A stretch of DNA of 64,000 bases from the IMG/VR virus record IMGVR_UViG_3300027779_000022; one strand, 5' to 3'. The notes below the pieces were generated by a model that worked only from the letters and a program-made list of their open reading frames with translations, did not search any database and was not told the origin of the DNA. Shown here one piece after another: positions 13,412 through 24,735 of the stretch. A program made the position numbers and the translations under genes. Within the stretch, counting starts at the first letter, position 1, and each line of letters opens with the position of its first letter. This DNA is from an uncultured virus (IMG/VR IMGVR_UViG_3300027779_000022). Its lineage: Duplodnaviria > Heunggongvirae > Uroviricota > Caudoviricetes.

Positions 13412-14137
13412 ATGGCGTTCAATGCGATGTCTGGAACGGTTATCATGGGTGGTACTTTCGAGCTGCCTGCCGGCGGTATCCTGTCGGGAAACCTTAGTAC
13501 TTCCGACGCTGCAAACGTCGTTAATGTGCCCCGCGTCTCAAACGCTACGAACAATGCGATTATTACGAACATTGGTGGAGATGCCAATACATTAACATGC
13601 GAGAGCAACCTTACCTTTGACGGTACGATTTTAAATGTAACAGGGCACGTTACAGCAAGCTTGGGGCTTTCAGCCTCTTTTTTATACGGAGATGGGAGCA
13701 ACCTTATCAACGTTAAAGCAGATCATGTTGTAGCAGAAGGTCCCGCATATTCTATTCAGTTTCACGATTCTTCTGATGGAGATTTAACTGGCTCTTCAAA
13801 TCTTATATTTTCTAGCAATGTTCTTTCTGTATCTGGCGGGATAGTCTTTAATCGAATCCAGACGACTGCAAATATGACGGCTTCCGCAACAGATTATTTC
13901 ATTGCAATCAACACAAATAGCAACCCGGTTGATGTAAGGCTTCCTAGTGCTGCGCTTCTTGCAAGCGGGCAAACTTATGTAATAAAAGATGAAGGCGGCG
14001 CCGCAAGTTCGAACAACATAACAGTTTTAGCTTCAGGATCACAAACAATTGATGGCCAAAATTCGATAGTTTTAGAGTCGCCTTATGCATCGATTCAGCT
14101 TTATTGCAACGGCTCAGATAAATACTTTATCTTCTAA
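13412..14137 (+). CDS. fibre-like virion protein, paralog 2
   Basis: C-terminal domain VIKDE...TIDG...LESPYASIQLYCNGSDKYFIF. Confidence 0.6.
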   Translation: MAFNAMSGTVIMGGTFELPAGGILSGNLSTSDAANVVNVPRVSNATNNAIITNIGGDANTLTCESNLTFDGTILNVTGHVTASLGLSASFLYGDGSNLINVKADHVVAEGPAYSIQFHDSSDGDLTGSSNLIFSSNVLSVSGGIVFNRIQTTANMTASATDYFIAINTNSNPVDVRLPSAALLASGQTYVIKDEGGAASSNNITVLASGSQTIDGQNSIVLESPYASIQLYCNGSDKYFIF

Positions 14138-14170
14138 AAAAAAACGTCAAACTCGTCACTATTTATAATG

Positions 14171-14192
14171 AACGAGGCTTATGTGCCTCGTT
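14171..14192 (+). promoter_or_regulatory. 5' leader hairpin after late motif
   Basis: AACGAGGC-ttatgt-GCCTCGTT, 5 nt after ACTATTTA at 14158. Confidence 0.5.
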
Positions 14193-14263
14193 TGCTATTG
14201 ACAAACAATTTAATAATTTAATTGCTTGTTCTATAAAACTTAATATATGGAGGGTTTTAAACT

Positions 14264-16087
14264 ATGGCTTATAAATTTCAAACTGGGGACGCTATTCTTA
14301 GCGGTTCCCTTACACGAGAAGGTTCGACGATTATCACCAACGATGCTGGCGCAGAAGTCGGTGTCTTTGATAATGGCGGAGTTCTCTCGGCATCTGCCGG
14401 CGCTACCGCCGCAAGTTTCACTTGTGATGGTGCACTCACCGCTGCCACGGCTGCACTCACGTCTCTTACAGCTTCTTCCGGTCTAAAAGCCGGCGAGGTA
14501 CAAGCAACTGGTCACGTGATTGCCCCGGCACTCATTTCTACCAACATCGTTTCCGGTTCTGGTCTTGCTTCTTTCGAGAGCCTAAGACTTGGCGGCGGTA
14601 CTGCTACTGTTAGCAACCTAGGTGCTGCAGTTTTCGGCGGTTCTGTAACTGCGGTCGGTTCTTTCGTTATCGGCAGCGCTGATCTCAACGAGGCCGATCT
14701 CGAAAAACTCGACGGTATCACTAACGGTACCGCTGCTGCATCTAAGGCTCTTGTTGCCGATGCAAACATCGACATCTCTGGTCTTCGTAATCTTACTGCT
14801 ACTGGCGTCATTTCGGCTGCTGGTATAACACTCGGTTCTGCCGTGCTTGTTGAAGCTGAGTTAGAAATGCTTGACGGCATTACTGCTGGTACTGCTGCTG
14901 CATCTAAGGCTCTCGTTGCTGATAGTAACATCGACATCGCTGGCCTTCGCAATGTAACTGGCACTGGCGCTATCACCGCCGGTACTTCGTTCATCATCGG
15001 TTCTGCCGACTTGAATGAAACCGATTTAGAGAAGCTTGACGGCATCACTAACGGTGCTGGTGCTGCAAATAAAGCTCTTGTCCTTGATGCAAGTGCTGAT
15101 GTGGCCTCCGGTCTACGTAATCTCACCGCTGGCGGTGCTTTAAACACAGCAACTCTTTCTGCATCTGGTGATGCGGGCAGCAACCGATTTTATGTCGGTG
15201 GTCCAAACTTTGGTGCCGCAAGCTTCAAAATTGACGACGCTGGTGTTATGGTCACAAACGCGATCCTTGGAACTAGTTTCTCAGGTTCAAGTTTTGTTTC
15301 GGCTTCTCACCTTTCTATCAACAACAACAACGCAAGCATTTCTGCATTAGGCGATGCTAGCTTCGCTGCAGTAACTGTTGGTTCTCTTCTCAAGATGCCT
15401 GACAACACATCTACCAAGTTTCTTGTTGCCGATGGCACAAGTTATCAAGAAGTGGCGATGAGTGGTGATGCTACTATGGACAACACTGGAGCAATAACAC
15501 TTGCTAACAACTCTGTCTCAAATGCCCAACTCGACAACGATGCAGTCACCGGCGCCGAACTCGCCGACGATGCTGTTGACTCCGAACACTATACAAATGG
15601 TTCTATTGATCTCATTCACATGAGTGCAAACTCTGTTGATTCAGATCAGTATGTCGATGGCTCTATTGATCTCATTCACATGAGTGCAAACTCTGTTGAT
15701 TCAGATCAGTATGTCGATGGCTCTATTGATGATGTACACCTTTCCGATGGTGTTGCAACTGGTTTAGCCGGCGCTGGTCTCTTGGCCACCTCTGGTGTGC
15801 TTTCTGTCCAAGGTAACGCTGTTGCTCTTGGTACGGATACTGTTATCCTTTCCGAAGGTTATAACTACTTCACTGGTTCAGCGACTGCTGTTTGCACGTT
15901 GCCTTCTGGTTCTATCGGTGATGTTGTCATTGTTAAGGCTGGTCCAACCGGTGCTGGTAACACAATTACCATTAGCAGGTCTGGTTCTTTAGATACAATT
16001 GATAACAGTACTACTGTTGTCCTTGAATCACCATATGCTGCTGTTTCAATGGTATATGTTACTCACGGCGACTGGCGAATCGTATAA
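14264..16087 (+). CDS. long fibre-like virion protein, paralog 3, with internal repeats
   Basis: Three ~57 aa repeats (LEKLDGITNGTAAASKALV), 20 aa repeats, C-terminal LESPYAAVSMVY..GDWRIV. Confidence 0.65.
   Translation: MAYKFQTGDAILSGSLTREGSTIITNDAGAEVGVFDNGGVLSASAGATAASFTCDGALTAATAALTSLTASSGLKAGEVQATGHVIAPALISTNIVSGSGLASFESLRLGGGTATVSNLGAAVFGGSVTAVGSFVIGSADLNEADLEKLDGITNGTAAASKALVADANIDISGLRNLTATGVISAAGITLGSAVLVEAELEMLDGITAGTAAASKALVADSNIDIAGLRNVTGTGAITAGTSFIIGSADLNETDLEKLDGITNGAGAANKALVLDASADVASGLRNLTAGGALNTATLSASGDAGSNRFYVGGPNFGAASFKIDDAGVMVTNAILGTSFSGSSFVSASHLSINNNNASISALGDASFAAVTVGSLLKMPDNTSTKFLVADGTSYQEVAMSGDATMDNTGAITLANNSVSNAQLDNDAVTGAELADDAVDSEHYTNGSIDLIHMSANSVDSDQYVDGSIDLIHMSANSVDSDQYVDGSIDDVHLSDGVATGLAGAGLLATSGVLSVQGNAVALGTDTVILSEGYNYFTGSATAVCTLPSGSIGDVVIVKAGPTGAGNTITISRSGSLDTIDNSTTVVLESPYAAVSMVYVTHGDWRIV
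15602..15730 (+). repeat. perfect 60-bp tandem duplication
   Basis: 15602-15661 is identical to 15662-15721, plus a partial third copy. Confidence 0.95.
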
Positions 16088-16113
16088 TTCACCACAACCT
16101 TTGGTTGTTTCCT

Positions 16114-16144
16114 GGATGCCCTCCTTGTGGGGGCATCCTTTTTT
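16114..16144 (+). terminator. intrinsic terminator
   Basis: GGATGCCCTC-cttgt-GGGGGCATCC followed by T6. Confidence 0.85.
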
Positions 16145-16192
16145 ATTAGACTATTTAAAACTATAAAGCTATTTACTGGAGATAGGATAACT

Positions 16193-17320
16193 ATGGCATA
16201 TAATGTATTAAAAGGAAAGGTTGATGGCTCAGTCGATCAGTACGGCGATCAAGAGATTGGTGGCGTTAAAATATTTAAGAGCGCTATCAGTGCAAGCGTC
16301 TTCTACGACACCGATGCTATGAGCCCTTGTGCCACAATGAAAGACGTTGCAATAACAAAAATTGTTGGTGGAACAAAGGAGAATCTTTTAACTTACGAAG
16401 GTGATTCAGAAATAAAAGCTCATCATGATTTAACATATGATGGTGTAACTTTACAGTCTCATCACATAAGATCAAAACTTTTTATGGGTTCTGGAAAATC
16501 CCTAACGGATTTACCAGCAAATAAATTCTATGAAAAGATAAATGCAGTAAATTTGAATTTTGGAAGAGGCTTGCATAACGTCAGAAAAGAATTGCAAGTT
16601 AAAGCTATCAATGGATTAGAAGTAGATGAAGATGGCGTCGGCATATCTTTGTCGCCCACCTCTGGCTTATCAATTCGTTCAAAGAATCTGGTGGTTGACC
16701 CAACTAAAATGGAAGCGATAAACCTAGGTGGACAAAATCTTAGTGATCAAGATCTTCTAATGGTTTCAGACATATCTAAAGGTTCTACTAAGAGCACAAC
16801 ACTAAAGAATCTTTACGACAGTTACATTAGTATTAAAATGCACAGACCCTCTGGCAAGAAAAACGAGATTCAATGGATGGGATCGAATGAGTTTGATTCA
16901 TCTCCTAATCTTACGTACGATGGACAATCAGATACATTAGCGGTTGATGGAAAAATCAAAACTAGTAATTTAAAAGTAGATTCAACAATCGTATGCACCG
17001 GAGCAGTATACTATAACATAAACAAGGTCACTTCCGCGGAATATAATGTTCAATCGGAAGATTACACAATTCTTTGCGACGCCTCACAAAATAAAATTAA
17101 AGTTATTTTACCTCCCGCGGTAAACAACAATGGAAGAATTTTGATAATCAAGAAGGCAAACTCTGATAAATACAAAATAAATTCCAATCAAGTTGATGTA
17201 CTCTGTAAAGAGGGCCGAATAGATATTAATGACACCATGCCAATAAAAATGAATTATTCATCCAGAACTCTTCAATCAGATGGAGAAAATTGGTGGATTA
17301 TTGGAACTAAGGGTTCCTGA
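16193..17320 (+). CDS. fibre-like virion protein, paralog 4
   Basis: Start moved to MAYNVLKG (16193); C-terminal IIKK...LQSDGENWWII. Confidence 0.6.
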   Translation: MAYNVLKGKVDGSVDQYGDQEIGGVKIFKSAISASVFYDTDAMSPCATMKDVAITKIVGGTKENLLTYEGDSEIKAHHDLTYDGVTLQSHHIRSKLFMGSGKSLTDLPANKFYEKINAVNLNFGRGLHNVRKELQVKAINGLEVDEDGVGISLSPTSGLSIRSKNLVVDPTKMEAINLGGQNLSDQDLLMVSDISKGSTKSTTLKNLYDSYISIKMHRPSGKKNEIQWMGSNEFDSSPNLTYDGQSDTLAVDGKIKTSNLKVDSTIVCTGAVYYNINKVTSAEYNVQSEDYTILCDASQNKIKVILPPAVNNNGRILIIKKANSDKYKINSNQVDVLCKEGRIDINDTMPIKMNYSSRTLQSDGENWWIIGTKGS

Positions 17321-17353
17321 AAGATACTTATACATAACGGAGACTATTACTAA

Positions 17354-19435
17354 ATGGCTTATAATTCCTCAAAAGGACCACAACAACACGGCGACGTAAA
17401 ATTTGAAGACGATCCCGAAGATACTCAGATTGATTTCGAAAACGATTTTATAGCTTTCAAAACCAACGGTATCCAAAGATTCATAATCAACGGTTCACAT
17501 ATCACAGCATCGATATCCTTATCCTCTTCTGCGGCCGCAGACTTCAAAAGCTTAAATATTAATGGGGCCCGGGCAGCAATCAGCGAGGCGGGAGCGATCA
17601 CCACTGTTACCCTTACGGCTTCACAGGGTATCAGAGCGAATGAATTTTCAGCTGTTGGTCATATACAAGCCCCGGCATTTATTGCTGCAGGCGGCGCCGG
17701 CATTATTTCCGGCTCTGGCCAAGGATCTTTCGAGAATATAAGTATCGGCGGAGGTAGAGCGTCCGTTAGTAATGTTGGAGTAGTTACCGCAGTAAGCCTC
17801 ACGGCATCTGCTGCTGGTCATTTCCAAAGTTTACAAATTAATGGTAACCATGCATCTATTGATGCCAATGGGGCTATTACCGTCCGCGAGGTTACAGCCT
17901 CGGCAGGAATTAAAGCGGCTTCTGTATCTGGTTCAGGCGCCGGCGCCTTTCAAAGTCTTGCAATCCATGGCGGCGTGGCTTCTATTTCTAATGCCGGCAC
18001 TGCAGTCTTAGCTGGAGTTACAGCAACAAGCGTAACTTCATCGGGAGCCGGAGGATTCCAAAGCCTTACAATAAATGGCAACCATGCTTCGATAGATGCG
18101 AATGGAAAAACTATTCTAAGAGAGCTGACTGCATCATCTGGTATTATGGCTGTAAGCATATCCGCTTCTGCAGCTGGCGCTTTCCAAACCTTGGCGATCA
18201 ATGGTAATCGTGCGTCAATCAATGCCACCGGTGCAGCTACATTTAGAGAGATTACGGCTTCTGCTGGAATCAAAGCGGTTTCGGTATCTGGTTCGGGCAC
18301 TGGCGCTTTCCAGACATTAGCTATAAATGGCAACAGAGCCTCGATCAATGCACTTGGGGCAGCTACGTTTAGAGAAATTACATCCTCTGCTGGCATTAAA
18401 GCCACTACGATATCCGGCTCTGGCTTGGCATCGTTTCAGCTGTTAAACATAAATAACAATACTATGACTGTTGCTGCTGACGGAGCTATAGGCGTTAACG
18501 AAGAGCCCGGTATCGGTTGTTGTTTCAAGATTAAAGCACCCGCCGACGAAAGTTCCATGATCTTTAAGTTTCCCAGTCATGAGGTAGTTCTTGGCATAAC
18601 CGGCTCAGGGCAGGTAACAGTCGGTGGCCTTCTTTTAAATGCGAAACTAAATGTCACTGGCTCAGACTTAGATATGCTCTTTGAAGCTAAGAGCAATACA
18701 AGAATCCCTGCATTTCGAGTTGAAGGAAGTGGGCAGACCTTTATCTCCGGAAGTTTAATCCTTAAAAACACGGAGCCTACAATTTACTTTAGCTCATCAC
18801 ACAATCCTGGCACCCCATTGGGACAAATAGGTTATAATTCTTCGGACAATATTTTAATTCAAAACGATACGATCAACAAGCACATTGTATTGAAGGTCAA
18901 TGACGGCGGTGTAACTCGGGAAGGATTCAGAATTAATGGTTCAGTACCAGAAGTTGTTGTCAATGAGGGTTCTGACTCTTTAGTTGATTTTAGAGTCGAA
19001 AGCACTAACAACACTCACATGTTGTTTGTTGACGGCAGCACCGACAAGGTTGGAATAAATACAGCCACTCCGGGAGATTCCCTCAGTGTTGTAGGATCAA
19101 CTCACATGAGCGGATCGGTTAGACTTCATACTGCTTTGAAAACAGCTAACTATACCTTAACGGCTACGGATCGAGTGGTTATATTCAACCCCACGAATGG
19201 TACCACAGCTTCTTTACCAGCCTTGTCTAATGCGACTGTAGGTTTAACGTATACAATTAAAAATCTTTCACCTCATGTGATTCAAGTTTCCGCCAGCAGC
19301 GCACAAGAAGACTTTATTGATGGGTTATCGACACATGATTTGGCAGCGTCGACGGCGGGCTCTGGCTCTTTTATAACTGTATGTGGATTTGCTATTGGAG
19401 CCGGCTTTGATTGGGCAGTTATTGCTAAAAACTAA
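17354..19435 (+). CDS. long fibre protein, paralog 5, with ~39 aa repeats
   Basis: Repeated FQTLAINGNRASINA.GAATFREITASAGIKA; DFRVES...VGINTATP fibre-type motifs. Confidence 0.65.
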   Translation: MAYNSSKGPQQHGDVKFEDDPEDTQIDFENDFIAFKTNGIQRFIINGSHITASISLSSSAAADFKSLNINGARAAISEAGAITTVTLTASQGIRANEFSAVGHIQAPAFIAAGGAGIISGSGQGSFENISIGGGRASVSNVGVVTAVSLTASAAGHFQSLQINGNHASIDANGAITVREVTASAGIKAASVSGSGAGAFQSLAIHGGVASISNAGTAVLAGVTATSVTSSGAGGFQSLTINGNHASIDANGKTILRELTASSGIMAVSISASAAGAFQTLAINGNRASINATGAATFREITASAGIKAVSVSGSGTGAFQTLAINGNRASINALGAATFREITSSAGIKATTISGSGLASFQLLNINNNTMTVAADGAIGVNEEPGIGCCFKIKAPADESSMIFKFPSHEVVLGITGSGQVTVGGLLLNAKLNVTGSDLDMLFEAKSNTRIPAFRVEGSGQTFISGSLILKNTEPTIYFSSSHNPGTPLGQIGYNSSDNILIQNDTINKHIVLKVNDGGVTREGFRINGSVPEVVVNEGSDSLVDFRVESTNNTHMLFVDGSTDKVGINTATPGDSLSVVGSTHMSGSVRLHTALKTANYTLTATDRVVIFNPTNGTTASLPALSNATVGLTYTIKNLSPHVIQVSASSAQEDFIDGLSTHDLAASTAGSGSFITVCGFAIGAGFDWAVIAKN

Positions 19436-20703: not shown

Positions 20704-22512
20704 ATGTCTAGTATAATCGAAAGGTTAACCGAAGGAGTTGTTAACCGTGATATGCGCGCCGAAAGCCACGCTCTTCTTACCAAATGGGAGAAGACCGGTC
20801 TTCTAGAGGGTCTTACCAAAGACCGTCAGAAGGGAGCTATGGCTCGCTTGCTTGAAAACCAAGCAAAAGAACTGCTTCGCGAGAGCAGCAGCATGAGCGC
20901 TGGTGATGTTGAGGGCTTTGCAGCCGTCGCGTTCCCCATCGTACGTCGTGTATTCGCAGGCCTGATCGCAAATGATCTTGTCTCTGTTCAGCCCATGAGT
21001 TTACCCTCGGGTCTGATTTTCTTCCTTGACTTCGTGTATTCCCCGAACCTTGGAAGTTCTTCAAGCCTTGCTGATCGTTTTGGTAACACAGCTAACGAAT
21101 CCATCTATGGTGGTTCTGCAACTGGTGCCGAGATTACCGGTGGTGTATCATTGGTCGGAGCTATGGGTCAGGACCTCTCTGGTCCACGTACAGTTGGTGC
21201 TAATGGTTACGCGTATTCGTCGCCAACCGCATCATTCGCTGTTACTTCTAGTGGCATGGTAGCACGTGGTTTCCTCATTGGTAACGGTACTCATGCACAA
21301 AACAAGTTGATCGAATACGATCCTGACTTGTTGGCGCTTAGTGGGTCCTCTCGTTATGTTATCTCTCTTGAGATAACTAAGGCCACCGTTGCAGCTGCTG
21401 GTGCTGGTTCTCAAGTTGACTATAACAACCTCGGTGCGTTCTCTTGTTCCATCGATTCGTTACGTCAGGTCTTGGGCGATTCTGGTCTTACGACTGCTGC
21501 AACCACACAGATTCGTCGTCTGACTAACATTACCACTGGTAGTAATAATCAATCTGCGGGTCGTACCGATGGCAATCTTAACCTTGTCTTTGTTACCACT
21601 GACAGTAGTAGCCCGGCCGTCACCGCGGTCGGTACACAATACCTCTCCATGAGTGCTCCACAGGTTGATGATATCACCACTGGTGGCGCAATTGGTTCAG
21701 TTATTGGTCAGACTGAGTGGGGCCTTGAGGGTAATGAAAACATCCCTGAGATCGACATAAAGGTTGACAGCATTGCTGTTACTGCACAAACCAAGAAGCT
21801 TAAGGCTAAGTGGACTCCGGAGTTAGGTCAAGACCTTAACGCCTACCACAACCTTGATGCTGAGGTTGAGTTGACTAGCATTCTCTCTGAGCAAATTGCT
21901 CTTGAGATTGACCGTGAGATCCTTGGTGATCTTATTAACGGCGCAAAAGCTAGTACACTTTACTGGTCTCGTTCCCCCGGCTTGTTTGTCGATAAGGGAA
22001 CCGGTCAAGAAATTGGAGCGTCTTCGGCTGCTCCTGACTTCACCGGAACGGTATCAGAGTGGTATGAGACCCTTGTTGAGACTATCAATGATGTCTCGGC
22101 TGCTATTCACCGCAAGACTCTTCGCGGCGGAGCTAACTTCATTGTCTGCGGACCTGAAATTGCTAACGTCCTTGAGTTCACCGCTGGATTCCGTGCTTCC
22201 GTCACCCATGACGATGAGAGCGGTTCTGTTGGTGCTGTGAAGGTTGGTGCCCTGAGTAAGAAGTTCGACGTCATTGTTGACCCGTACTTCCTCCGCAATG
22301 TGATTCTTATTGGTCGCCGCGGCTCCTCTTTCCTTGAAAGCGGATACGTGTACGCCCCGTACGTCCCACTGCAGACCACACCAACAATCTTCGGACCAGA
22401 AGACTTCGTACCTCGCAAGGGTGTGATGACTCGTTACGCGAAGAAGATGGTGCGTCCTGATATGTATGGCCTTGTGGTTGTACGCGGACTTCTTGGAGAA
22501 GCTGGCGGATAG
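20704..22512 (+). CDS. major capsid protein (T4 gp23-like)
   Basis: VSVQPMSLPSGLIF, KLKAKWTPELGQDL, LEIDREI, YAPYVPL, PRKGVMTRY. Confidence 0.96.
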   Translation: MSSIIERLTEGVVNRDMRAESHALLTKWEKTGLLEGLTKDRQKGAMARLLENQAKELLRESSSMSAGDVEGFAAVAFPIVRRVFAGLIANDLVSVQPMSLPSGLIFFLDFVYSPNLGSSSSLADRFGNTANESIYGGSATGAEITGGVSLVGAMGQDLSGPRTVGANGYAYSSPTASFAVTSSGMVARGFLIGNGTHAQNKLIEYDPDLLALSGSSRYVISLEITKATVAAAGAGSQVDYNNLGAFSCSIDSLRQVLGDSGLTTAATTQIRRLTNITTGSNNQSAGRTDGNLNLVFVTTDSSSPAVTAVGTQYLSMSAPQVDDITTGGAIGSVIGQTEWGLEGNENIPEIDIKVDSIAVTAQTKKLKAKWTPELGQDLNAYHNLDAEVELTSILSEQIALEIDREILGDLINGAKASTLYWSRSPGLFVDKGTGQEIGASSAAPDFTGTVSEWYETLVETINDVSAAIHRKTLRGGANFIVCGPEIANVLEFTAGFRASVTHDDESGSVGAVKVGALSKKFDVIVDPYFLRNVILIGRRGSSFLESGYVYAPYVPLQTTPTIFGPEDFVPRKGVMTRYAKKMVRPDMYGLVVVRGLLGEAGG

Positions 22513-22533
22513 GCAATCAAGTAGTCAAATAAG

Positions 22534-22567
22534 AAACCCCCCTTGTTTTGGCAAGGGGGGTTTTTTT
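22534..22567 (+). terminator. intrinsic terminator after capsid gene
   Basis: AAACCCCCCTTG...CAAGGGGGGTTT plus T run. Confidence 0.9.
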
Positions 22568-22628
22568 GTTTATGCTTGTCTTAAACGCGTTGGAAAAACT
22601 ACTTATATTTGACTTGAGAGTTTTCTTC

Positions 22629-22711
22629 GAGGTCGGGGCCACTGACCTTTAAAGATTTATAGCCGAAGTGGCTGGCTATATTTTGTGATTATAATCAGGT
22701 TATCGATAACC
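22629..22711 (+). ncRNA. putative structured leader RNA with kissing loops
   Basis: Two hairpins with complementary loops (GCCAC/GTGGC), then two palindromes, between a late motif and the SD. Confidence 0.45.
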
Positions 22712-22747
22712 ATATCAAATAACATACCTTGAAGGAGGAAACAAATT

Positions 22748-23605
22748 ATGGGAAATAGAAGAATGGGCTTAGCCAGAATGGACGCCCTTTTAGAAAAACT
22801 AGATAGAGATATAGATCTCACGAATTCAACATTAACAGACTGCACCATCACAACTAGTGCTGCAGCAACATTTACAGGTGCACATGCCATCAGCGGTACT
22901 GGCACACATACGATATACGGACAGGACCAATACAACAGTGGTATTCATACCACAATGTTTGGATTGCATCCACAATGGAGCGCCAACTTCGGCGAACCCA
23001 AATTCCAGGGTCTCGACCCAGCCGCAGGTACCGACGATGTAGTAACATCTGGCAACGTTGCGTTAAACCTCTCTAGAGCTTTGGAATACATCGCCGGCCT
23101 TTCGGCTGTACCTACTGTCGCCCACGCAGCCACCGTTTTTGGCGGATCAGGGGTTCTTGGAGTTGATGTTGCTATAGGAACGACCGGCGCCCCCGGGCAA
23201 ACCCCAACTGTCACCCAGAGAATCGCTAGATTAACTGGTAATGTCAGTGGAACGGTTGTCATGACCGTCGGCGCCGACTTAACAACAGCCGGCGACGAAT
23301 GCCTAATTTTGTTTACGGGTAACACATTTGGATCGTCTGGACTTCTTAAGCTCACGATGCACGCCAACAACTCCCTAGACGCAGAGTCCGGAGAAGTTTG
23401 GTGTACAACGGATGGAACGGATCTTTTGACTCGTCAAGGCGCCTTCACCGATGGTAGAAATCTCATACTATTAACCGACACGGGCGACAGTACTATATTG
23501 GCAGGTTCTTACTTGTATTTCCATGCTGGTAATGACTCCAATGTTATGTGCGTCAAAGGGGTTATTAGAACCACTGGCGGAACAATCGCGGTAACAGACG
23601 CTTAA
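22748..23605 (+). CDS. putative capsid decoration/virion protein
   Basis: Own late motif, AAGGAGG SD and terminator; Gly/Thr-rich. Confidence 0.55.
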   Translation: MGNRRMGLARMDALLEKLDRDIDLTNSTLTDCTITTSAAATFTGAHAISGTGTHTIYGQDQYNSGIHTTMFGLHPQWSANFGEPKFQGLDPAAGTDDVVTSGNVALNLSRALEYIAGLSAVPTVAHAATVFGGSGVLGVDVAIGTTGAPGQTPTVTQRIARLTGNVSGTVVMTVGADLTTAGDECLILFTGNTFGSSGLLKLTMHANNSLDAESGEVWCTTDGTDLLTRQGAFTDGRNLILLTDTGDSTILAGSYLYFHAGNDSNVMCVKGVIRTTGGTIAVTDA

Positions 23606-23673: not shown

Positions 23674-23702
23674 TTGACAAGGTGATGCAAACCTGTTATA
23701 AT
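23674..23702 (+). promoter_or_regulatory. sigma70-type promoter
   Basis: TTGACA-17-TATAAT with TG extension. Confidence 0.85.
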
Positions 23703-23743
23703 AAAAACAATAAAATTATGATTGTTACAATATAGGAGAACAA

Positions 23744-23932
23744 ATGAGTAATGAAAAAGAAATTGTAGAAGAGAAAAAAAGCGATAAAGAGAGGATCGAA
23801 ACTCTTGAGTCTCAGGTGGCAGAACTATATGGGCTGAATAAAAGAACAATAGAAAACTTTCGGGAACTAGTTCAGTTAAACATCTTTGATAATCTTCGAT
23901 CGCAATCTTTTAGGAACCCTTCCGAAGAATAG
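23744..23932 (+). CDS. small coiled-coil protein, paralog A
   Basis: AGGAG SD and own promoter; similar to 24041 ORF. Confidence 0.75.
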   Translation: MSNEKEIVEEKKSDKERIETLESQVAELYGLNKRTIENFRELVQLNIFDNLRSQSFRNPSEE

Positions 23933-23983
23933 AATTATTCCGACACCCTTTGAATCCCCTCCCAACCGTCTAGGAGGCTTTTC

Positions 23984-24012
23984 TTGACAAACCAAACTTA
24001 ATATGTTATAGT
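23984..24012 (+). promoter_or_regulatory. sigma70-type promoter
   Basis: TTGACA-17-TATAGT with TG extension. Confidence 0.8.
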
Positions 24013-24040
24013 AAACCAGACCGGAACACTAGGAGAAAAA

Positions 24041-24223
24041 ATGACGGACCCAACAATTAGCGCCACAGAATGCAAAGAGAAAGGACCCACCTTGGAAGAT
24101 AGAGTTGAGTACCTCGAGCATATGACTAGGGAACTCTTAGGGCGCCATAAAGATATGCTAGGCCACTTCCGTGAAATGGTAGTGGCTGTCACAGAGATCT
24201 CTGGGGAATCTTCGGACGAATAA
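24041..24223 (+). CDS. small coiled-coil protein, paralog B
   Basis: AGGAG SD and own promoter; similar to 23744 ORF. Confidence 0.75.
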   Translation: MTDPTISATECKEKGPTLEDRVEYLEHMTRELLGRHKDMLGHFREMVVAVTEISGESSDE

Positions 24224-24336
24224 GGCAATTCAATTTTTTTTATTTAATATGCCGATCTCTCAAATTTTTTCCTCGGCAAATTTTTGAGATTTTTACATAG
24301 GTTATAACTATTTACTGTGACACATAGGAGCCCAAA

Positions 24337-24735
24337 ATGGGAAAAAAGAGAAGATTATTAGCTGCTAAAGGCAAGTTTGGAAATAAATTTAGCGCCCATC
24401 CTAGATATAAAGTTCAGGATGTTGTACCAACATTGAAAGTCGATCACGATCTGAAGATTATTGCCAAGAAGATTGAGACTATTGAAAGCGAAGTTATTAA
24501 AACTCAAAGTGAAGTAGAAAAGGTTGTCGTTGAAGCAACCCCTTCACCAGAAGTGGATAAACCAGAGGTGGTAGCACCGGTGGTAGTACCAATTGTAACC
24601 GCAGCGCCAGTCTCGGTTACAAAAATTGCCAAAGTTAAGAAAAAGTCGCCAACAAGAAAGTCTGCGACAATAACTGCTACAAAAAGAAAAAGCACAACAA
24701 AAAGAAATACTACTAGTACAACTGCAAAAAATTAG
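24337..24735 (+). CDS. basic Lys/Thr-rich late protein
   Basis: Late motif at 24307, AGGAG SD; basic N- and C-termini. Confidence 0.65.
   Translation: MGKKRRLLAAKGKFGNKFSAHPRYKVQDVVPTLKVDHDLKIIAKKIETIESEVIKTQSEVEKVVVEATPSPEVDKPEVVAPVVVPIVTAAPVSVTKIAKVKKKSPTRKSATITATKRKSTTKRNTTSTTAKN

Follow-up and report, generated by a model that had tools for sequence, protein, structure and literature searches.

Sequence comparison indicates that a family of uncultured ocean phages has maintained a real folded RNA, absent from catalogues, ahead of an optional gene for a putative virion-surface protein. The window, a stretch of 64,000 nucleotides, is part of a T4-like phage genome (Uroviricota record) in which a gp23-type capsid gene is followed by neck, sheath and tube genes. 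The leader RNA at 22611-22711 was established by comparison of homologs as a three-way junction composed of a closing helix and two hairpins with pairing loops; the junction, the loop-loop pairing, the folded strand and the fixed place between a late motif and a gene were all demonstrated in this way. We give about an even chance to the view that it serves as a two-fold cis translational leader of the MS2 maturation type, which would control an accessory virion-surface gene and possibly use dimers as a trigger.

Genome setting and structure of the leader RNA

The upstream neighbor of the leader is the major capsid protein gene (20704..22512, + strand; gp23 type, Pfam PF07068 with E 7.8e-73; phrog_138). 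Its intrinsic terminator at 22531..22567 (+ strand) consists of a 16-pair stem and a U run. Cultured phages offer only distant relatives of this capsid protein, the closest being those of Flavobacterium immuto phages at 45% and of RM378 at 42% over roughly two thirds of its length. A late-promoter-like motif, ACTAHTTA, is found at 22598..22605 (+ strand), where it reads ACTACTTA. The window contains 19 copies on the + strand and one on the - strand, and many sit shortly 5' of genes. Because of this strand bias and the frequent location directly before genes, ACTAHTTA is probably the late promoter of the phage clade. Reading the motif as the T4 consensus TATAAATA on the opposite strand was rejected since the middle base is variable and the motif points to genes on the + strand. 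The leader lies between the capsid terminator and a 285-aa ORF starting at 22748. Each of four large viral records with the RNA has a single copy of it, and two of these records are complete (192-195 kb); the nearest record (G001, a 13.5-kb fragment) is without it.

Several other features were observed in the window. A run of fibre-like genes at 13412-19435, several with similar short C-terminal domains, is located 5' of the scaffold and capsid genes. Inside the late region, two near-perfect sigma-70 promoters (12/12 and 11/12) at 23674-24223 lead into two small ORFs of 62 and 60 aa, both acidic. At 24240-24300 lies a conserved AT-rich motif in which a short inverted repeat surrounds TTTTTGAGATTT; the motif is present once in the window, directly 5' of a late motif. 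It is found in 27 of the 63 relatives having at least 2 kb after the capsid gene and is possibly an origin, a packaging site or a protein-binding site. The 132-aa ORF at 24337-24735 has a basic N-terminus, a lysine/threonine-rich tail and its own late motif upstream; ORFs with a similar basic start are found downstream of the capsid gene in many relatives.

The preliminary description of the leader reported two hairpins with complementary loops, two palindromes and a Shine-Dalgarno (SD) sequence, and all of its coordinates were correct on re-reading. Hairpin 1 (22629-22649) and hairpin 2 (22658-22680) each have a 7-nt loop, with GCCAC at 22638-22642 and GTGGC at 22668-22672, respectively. The palindromes are at 22686-22697 and 22698-22711, GGAGG is at 22734-22738 and the ATG at 22748. 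Two elements had been missed, the closing helix P1 (22611-22617 paired with 22695-22701) and an anti-SD stretch (22620-22628). All features are on the + strand. The P1a 5' strand (22611..22617), whose first base is a purine in 96/97, is the probable 5' end of the transcript, and P1 starts 4-5 nt after the late motif in 94/97 homologs. The anti-SD stretch, which comprises the P1b 5' strand and the base of P2 (22620..22628), pairs with 22731-22742 in the minimum-energy fold. Hairpin P2 (22626..22652; loop L2 at 22635-22643, loop-pairing bases 22638-22642) is 98.5% paired with double changes at 3/4 counted pairs; hairpin P3 (22653..22686; loop L3 at 22665-22673, loop-pairing bases 22668-22672) has double changes at 6/8 counted pairs. 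In the fold of 22611-22712 the P1 3' strand occupies 22687..22701. The sequence and the fold place the SD region at 22731..22742. Only one of the two palindromes stands as an element of its own. The first occurs in 1/98 sequences and is in fact the 3' strand of P1, and the second (22698..22711) is a conserved self-complementary segment overlapping the last 3-4 P1a pairs, as a weak hairpin or a dimer site.

Covariation across relatives, which had been proposed as a check on the structure, was found in the stems. Base pairs were counted on 98 aligned sequences, in which 96.1% of cells are paired, compared with 84.3% in shuffles and 29-47% in slid controls. The two variable pairs of the loop-loop interaction (the kiss) show 14 and 15 double changes, and such changes are numerous in P2 and P3. 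In P1a 99.1% of cells are paired, but the variation is one-sided and runs only through G-U, so this helix provides weaker evidence. The single-sequence folding score is modest by itself (z -2.5 and -2.3). In the paired columns G-U was counted 285 times versus 8 for A-C, and therefore the + strand RNA is the folded strand. A compensatory change from C-G to U-A is seen at the P2 base in the lineage of the window. The junction strands are not uniform, with two or more lengths and sequences (AUU/GU/GC), and nearly all of their bases can pair; the linker between the hairpins is mostly UAGAAAG, UUGAAG or UUAAAG.

Complementarity of the loops was scored on sets of homologs selected in several ways. 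A pattern with the two central bases of each loop left free matched at least 120 viral stretches; among the matches listed, window included, the loops are complementary in 99/99 distinct sequences (84 GCCAC/GTGGC, 14 GCGGC/GCCGC and 1 GCCGC/GCGGC). With all three central bases free, complementary loops were found in 48/48 matches having both stems, versus 4/72 below the stem cut-off, two of which are true members. A set of 167 distinct members (T4-like phage and metagenome contigs) was then chosen by stems alone, with metagenome matches added. The preliminary description had staked its proposal of a novel RNA with a conserved kiss on conservation of the loop complementarity, which was retained in 167/167 members (139 CCA/UGG, 21 CGG/CCG and 7 CCG/CGG); together with the covarying stems and the lack of an Rfam family, this bears the proposal out. 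A fourth loop version, CCC/GGG, is present in L072. On a quick tree of 163 members (four short rows skipped), built without the kiss bases, the three loop types require seven changes, and well-supported branches force at least two for each minor type; therefore the loop compensation arose more than once. Both loops share the consensus G-R-R-G-n-n-n-C-U. The two loops are separated by 21 or 22 bases in 162/163, a tight geometric constraint. A kiss of odd length cannot form between two identical loops, which leaves L2-L3 pairing as the only option, and the covariation is compatible with a kiss inside one molecule or between molecules.

The second segment provides, on present comparisons, the better sequence evidence for multimers than the kiss does. 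It is a perfect palindrome of at least 10 bases in 165/167 members, and the remaining two are self-complementary with G-U. The centers are UGCA (115), UCGA (45), ACGU (4) and UUAA (1); the search patterns had fixed four or five bases of the 5' half and left the center and 3' half free. Nothing in a hairpin calls for self-complementarity of its loop, and in the corresponding hairpins of sister leaders, taken as a control, the loop is self-complementary in 0/36. The palindrome variants are predicted to form hairpins of 0 to -3.4 kcal/mol and duplexes of -9 to -23 kcal/mol; for the variant in the window the values are -2.2 and -20.7 kcal/mol. Its maintenance through four different centers reads as a signature of RNA-RNA dimers. 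In OLE and GOLLD, palindrome-to-palindrome switches marked intermolecular bridges (bioRxiv 2024.12.08.627333). Dimers are plausible here because of the preserved self-complementary centers, the duplex energies and this precedent, and dimerization through the palindrome would plausibly strip the end of P1a. Some predicted dimers arose by stem exchange instead. A DNA operator was also considered for the palindrome and rejected: the distance between its half-sites is not fixed, differing by 2 to 6 or more bases, and a dimeric DNA-binding protein is therefore unlikely.

Downstream gene and distribution of the RNA

The 285-aa accessory gene (22748..23605, + strand) is predicted to encode a protein with a conserved basic N-terminal arm and a beta-sandwich C-terminal part (model pLDDT 88.7). 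The protein belongs to no Pfam or PHROG family, and a Foldseek search against PDB gave no match at E 0.001. Its best matches among solved structures are weak (Z 4.2-5.5, rmsd 2.9-6.8, 98-110 aligned) and are chains of phage baseplates, tailspikes and capsid spikes; the other structure matches are uncharacterised viral proteins only, and the Atlas neighbors are hypothetical. The C-terminal part weakly resembles phage virion spike/fibre, tailspike-anchor and baseplate domains. In the gene family the N-terminus R/K-R-x-G-x-x-R-L is conserved and the remainder is variable. The RNA lies directly 5' of this same gene family in 166/167 members. A capsid gene is recognizable upstream in 146/167; 15 members have too little upstream sequence, and another 6 either have a different location or escaped the test.

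Starting from the capsid protein, 80 loci were fetched, 75 of them with at least 200 bases downstream. The RNA is found at this position in 10/75 of these nearest capsid relatives. On a quick capsid tree it is scattered, with 9 changes for 10 rows, three of them forced by strong branches. RNA and gene together appear from this distribution to be an exchangeable accessory cassette. Sister phages have simpler leaders before the same gene family, or lack the gene. A GUU...RAC-AYRAU core near the SD is common to the sister leader types. Other structured leader types after the capsid gene (L202-L321) have a 5' hairpin and a GUU/GAC stem before the same gene family, and in some of them two hairpins, their stems showing compensation, take the place of a simple loop on the GUU/GAC stem. 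Among 91 distinct leaders, the sister two-hairpin leaders showed no consistent loop complementarity that would point to a second kissing class.

One contig departs from the usual arrangement. L564 (236-524, minus strand) carries a tandem duplication of promoter and RNA. Its first copy is intact but diverged (75% identity as aligned to its neighbor) and has no SD or ORF, with a terminator directly after it. The duplication spans terminator to palindrome; its spacers are nearly identical, unlike the two RNA bodies, and it may therefore have arisen by recombination. Three pattern matches in viral contigs were inspected for further tandem or gene-less copies and none scored as a member. No cellular copy or host clue was obtained from pattern matches in species genomes scored with the model (0/64). 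In four metatranscriptome runs (contigs), coverage fell only on the capsid gene of relatives, with one trace on the leader and its gene; these data are uninformative and do not speak for a lack of expression.

The earlier proposal of either a cis-regulatory RNA or a small ncRNA thus divides unevenly: the cis part is backed by the gene linkage in 166/167, and the ncRNA part has L564 as its one supporting case. A released or stand-alone small RNA that multimerises by its loops (head to tail) and its palindrome, and that acts in virion assembly as a scaffold or in the manner of a pRNA, would account for that gene-less copy and for an anatomy like that of phi29 pRNA (a helix, a three-way junction and two complementary loops; PMC4707685). 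With the RNA at this position in only 10/75 capsid relatives, it is not an essential pRNA. In 166/167 members an ORF rather than a terminator follows, and L564 is one contig, possibly a recombination relic, with no second tandem case among the viral contigs; we consider this reading distinctly unlikely. The leader might also be chiefly an anchor at which recombination exchanges the variable gene, with PeSL cassettes as precedent (PMC2839356). The scattered distribution and the L564 duplication fit such an anchor, which would need sequence identity and not compensated base pairs and which is at odds with the single copy in each of the four large records. This reading strikes us as scarcely credible.

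Alternative folds and a proposed translational switch

The 5' strand of P1b together with the P2 base reads UUCUCC(U) and is complementary to the SD. The four anti-SD core positions are able to pair with GGAG in 97/97. The folding model contains no term for the kiss or for junction stacking; with it, the nascent RNA cut before the SD forms P1a in 140/161, and the full leader forms the SD-anti-SD pairing in 111/161 and P1a in 38/161. The SD-masking fold is the minimum-energy fold for the leader in the window, and the median gap between the two folds is 2.0 kcal/mol (97 sequences). One anti-SD U is kept in 91/92; its P1b partner pairs in 55/92 and its SD partner in 88/92 (5/97 unparsed). Covariation of the anti-SD:SD flanks is above shuffles at 2/11 offsets only, largely in one lineage, and the core is nearly invariant. 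The conservation of this U, the folds of nascent versus full leader and the linkage to one gene family support a switch.

In the proposed switch, transcription would start at P1. During synthesis P1 would close and the kiss would lock the junction, so that the UUCUCC stretch is hidden and ribosomes can load. Once the SD is made, the leader would refold, with UUCUCC pairing to the SD and translation shut; in the shut fold the downstream palindrome would capture the 3' end of P1a. Dimerized messages, or a protein bound at the palindrome, may pull P1 open and favor the shut fold as transcript accumulates. Dimers would do so because pairing between two copies of the palindrome is predicted to be far more stable than its hairpin. 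The net outcome would be a limited amount of a low-copy virion part.

Several points count against the switch. The energy of the kiss and junction stacking, for which the folding model has no term, could hold the leader permanently in the open fold. Pairing within P1b and P2 already accounts for most of the anti-SD bases, and a CUCC will pair with whatever SD is present. The slight flank covariation, tied largely to one lineage, also speaks against the switch, as does the fact that the search patterns had fixed part of the 5' half of the palindrome. Sister leaders stand before the same gene family without the domain, which shows that the gene can do without such control. In L564 the gene-less copy has kept the anti-SD and has no SD.

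Two rivals bear directly on these folds, and with the two that involve a released RNA or a ligand they rank after the switch in the order stabilizer, protein operator, released multimeric RNA and riboswitch. The leader may be a static, compact 5'-end domain that guards the late transcript against nucleases and leaves the SD accessible; the anti-SD match would then be a by-product of pairing between pyrimidine and purine strands. The start of P1 right after the promoter motif agrees with this, other leader types likewise open with a hairpin at that place, and the kiss could add several kcal/mol (the 7-pair duplex is -10.1 as a free duplex). A plain hairpin, however, does the job in relatives, and the conserved unpaired anti-SD U and C and the palindrome are left unexplained; we regard the static domain as unlikely. 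Alternatively, the arginine-rich N-terminal arm of the unassembled downstream protein could bind the GUU/RAC hairpin or the junction and stabilize the shut fold as an autoregulation operator. An N-terminal motif conserved beside a variable remainder fits such an operator, and so does the core directly 5' of the SD shared with other leader types. The arm could equally anchor the protein on the capsid, and linkage alone explains the co-occurrence; we rate the operator as slightly less likely still than the static domain.

If the translational switch includes the dimer step, the message would in effect take a count of itself, and RNA structure work would gain a small scaffold of natural origin. 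A bolder formulation is that this natural phage RNA of about 100 nt, with head-to-tail kissing loops and a foot palindrome, the two handles by which engineered pRNA is assembled, lets the message sense its own concentration by dimerising and shut the ribosome-binding site, or that the released domain builds RNA arrays late in infection and can exist gene-less as in L564; we hold it to be a speculative proposal and not a likely one. Post-transcriptional control of late structural genes is little described in T4-like phages, and the leader is a small RNA in which covariation is strong and compensatory variants exist in nature. Even if the basic reading alone is true, it represents a new Rfam-grade family in widespread marine phages.

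Comparison with known RNAs

The leader RNA appears to belong to none of the families tested. Rfam 15 gave 0 matches at the gathering threshold in the window, and at E up to 10 the matches were at chance level and nearly all on the terminator; the preliminary description had likewise recognized no known riboswitch, and no Rfam riboswitch matched. The hammerhead ribozyme has the catalytic core CUGANGA and GAAA at its junction; it was rejected in view of the lack of CUGANGA at the junction in the parsed alignment and of an Rfam match. No description of this RNA was found in the literature searched, including passages and tables of Fremin 2023 (PMC10690425), although it may be present in the alignments of that study as an unnamed candidate.

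The leader resembles the purine riboswitch aptamer (add; PMC12282948) in having a P1-P2-P3 junction with an L2-L3 interaction in a 5' leader, and a P1 that competes with the expression fold. Unlike the aptamer, the leader has longer P2 and P3, a Watson-Crick kiss of 5-7 pairs, a short variable junction and no metabolic gene. The purine consensus and pocket junction were absent, with no such row at E up to 10 and a junction of variable length and sequence. A metabolite- or ion-sensing riboswitch with its pocket in the junction would share this topology and the P1-versus-SD switch, but the junction strands of at least two lengths and sequences are almost fully pairable, the gene is virion-like and not metabolic, and neither an Rfam riboswitch match nor a member among the 64 pattern matches in cellular genomes was found. 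We consider it very improbable.

The bacterial SRP Alu domain (PMC4231752) has a three-way junction and a five-pair loop-loop pseudoknot within one molecule, so an intramolecular kiss is possible in general. The leader differs from it in having longer helices, no conserved UGU between the hairpins and no S domain, and Rfam gave no SRP match. Kissing loops, and loop changes that leave a palindrome intact (GC to CG), are shared with OLE, ROOL and GOLLD, and the phage context with ROOL and GOLLD (bioRxiv 2024.12.08.627333); those RNAs are large and ornate, whereas the leader is about 100 nt and is joined to a coding sequence. The leader shares with phi29 pRNA (PMC4707685) the closing helix, the three-way junction and two mutually complementary loops, and its natural palindrome sits where engineers add 'foot-to-foot' palindromes to pRNA. 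It differs in being from a T4-like phage, in its location within an mRNA leader and in its accessory distribution, not that of a core component of all related phages.

The closest likeness in action is to the MS2/Levivirus maturation leader, in which delayed SD masking serves a low-copy virion protein (PMC4615214). The likeness is one of working, not of shown homology, and on the side of the leader it is drawn from in silico folds only. The leader belongs to a late transcript of a DNA phage and its early fold is a kiss-locked three-way junction, where MS2 has a small hairpin. In both systems an upstream stretch complementary to the SD can pair with it across three hairpins, an earlier fold hides that stretch (in silico for the leader), and the gene encodes a virion part.
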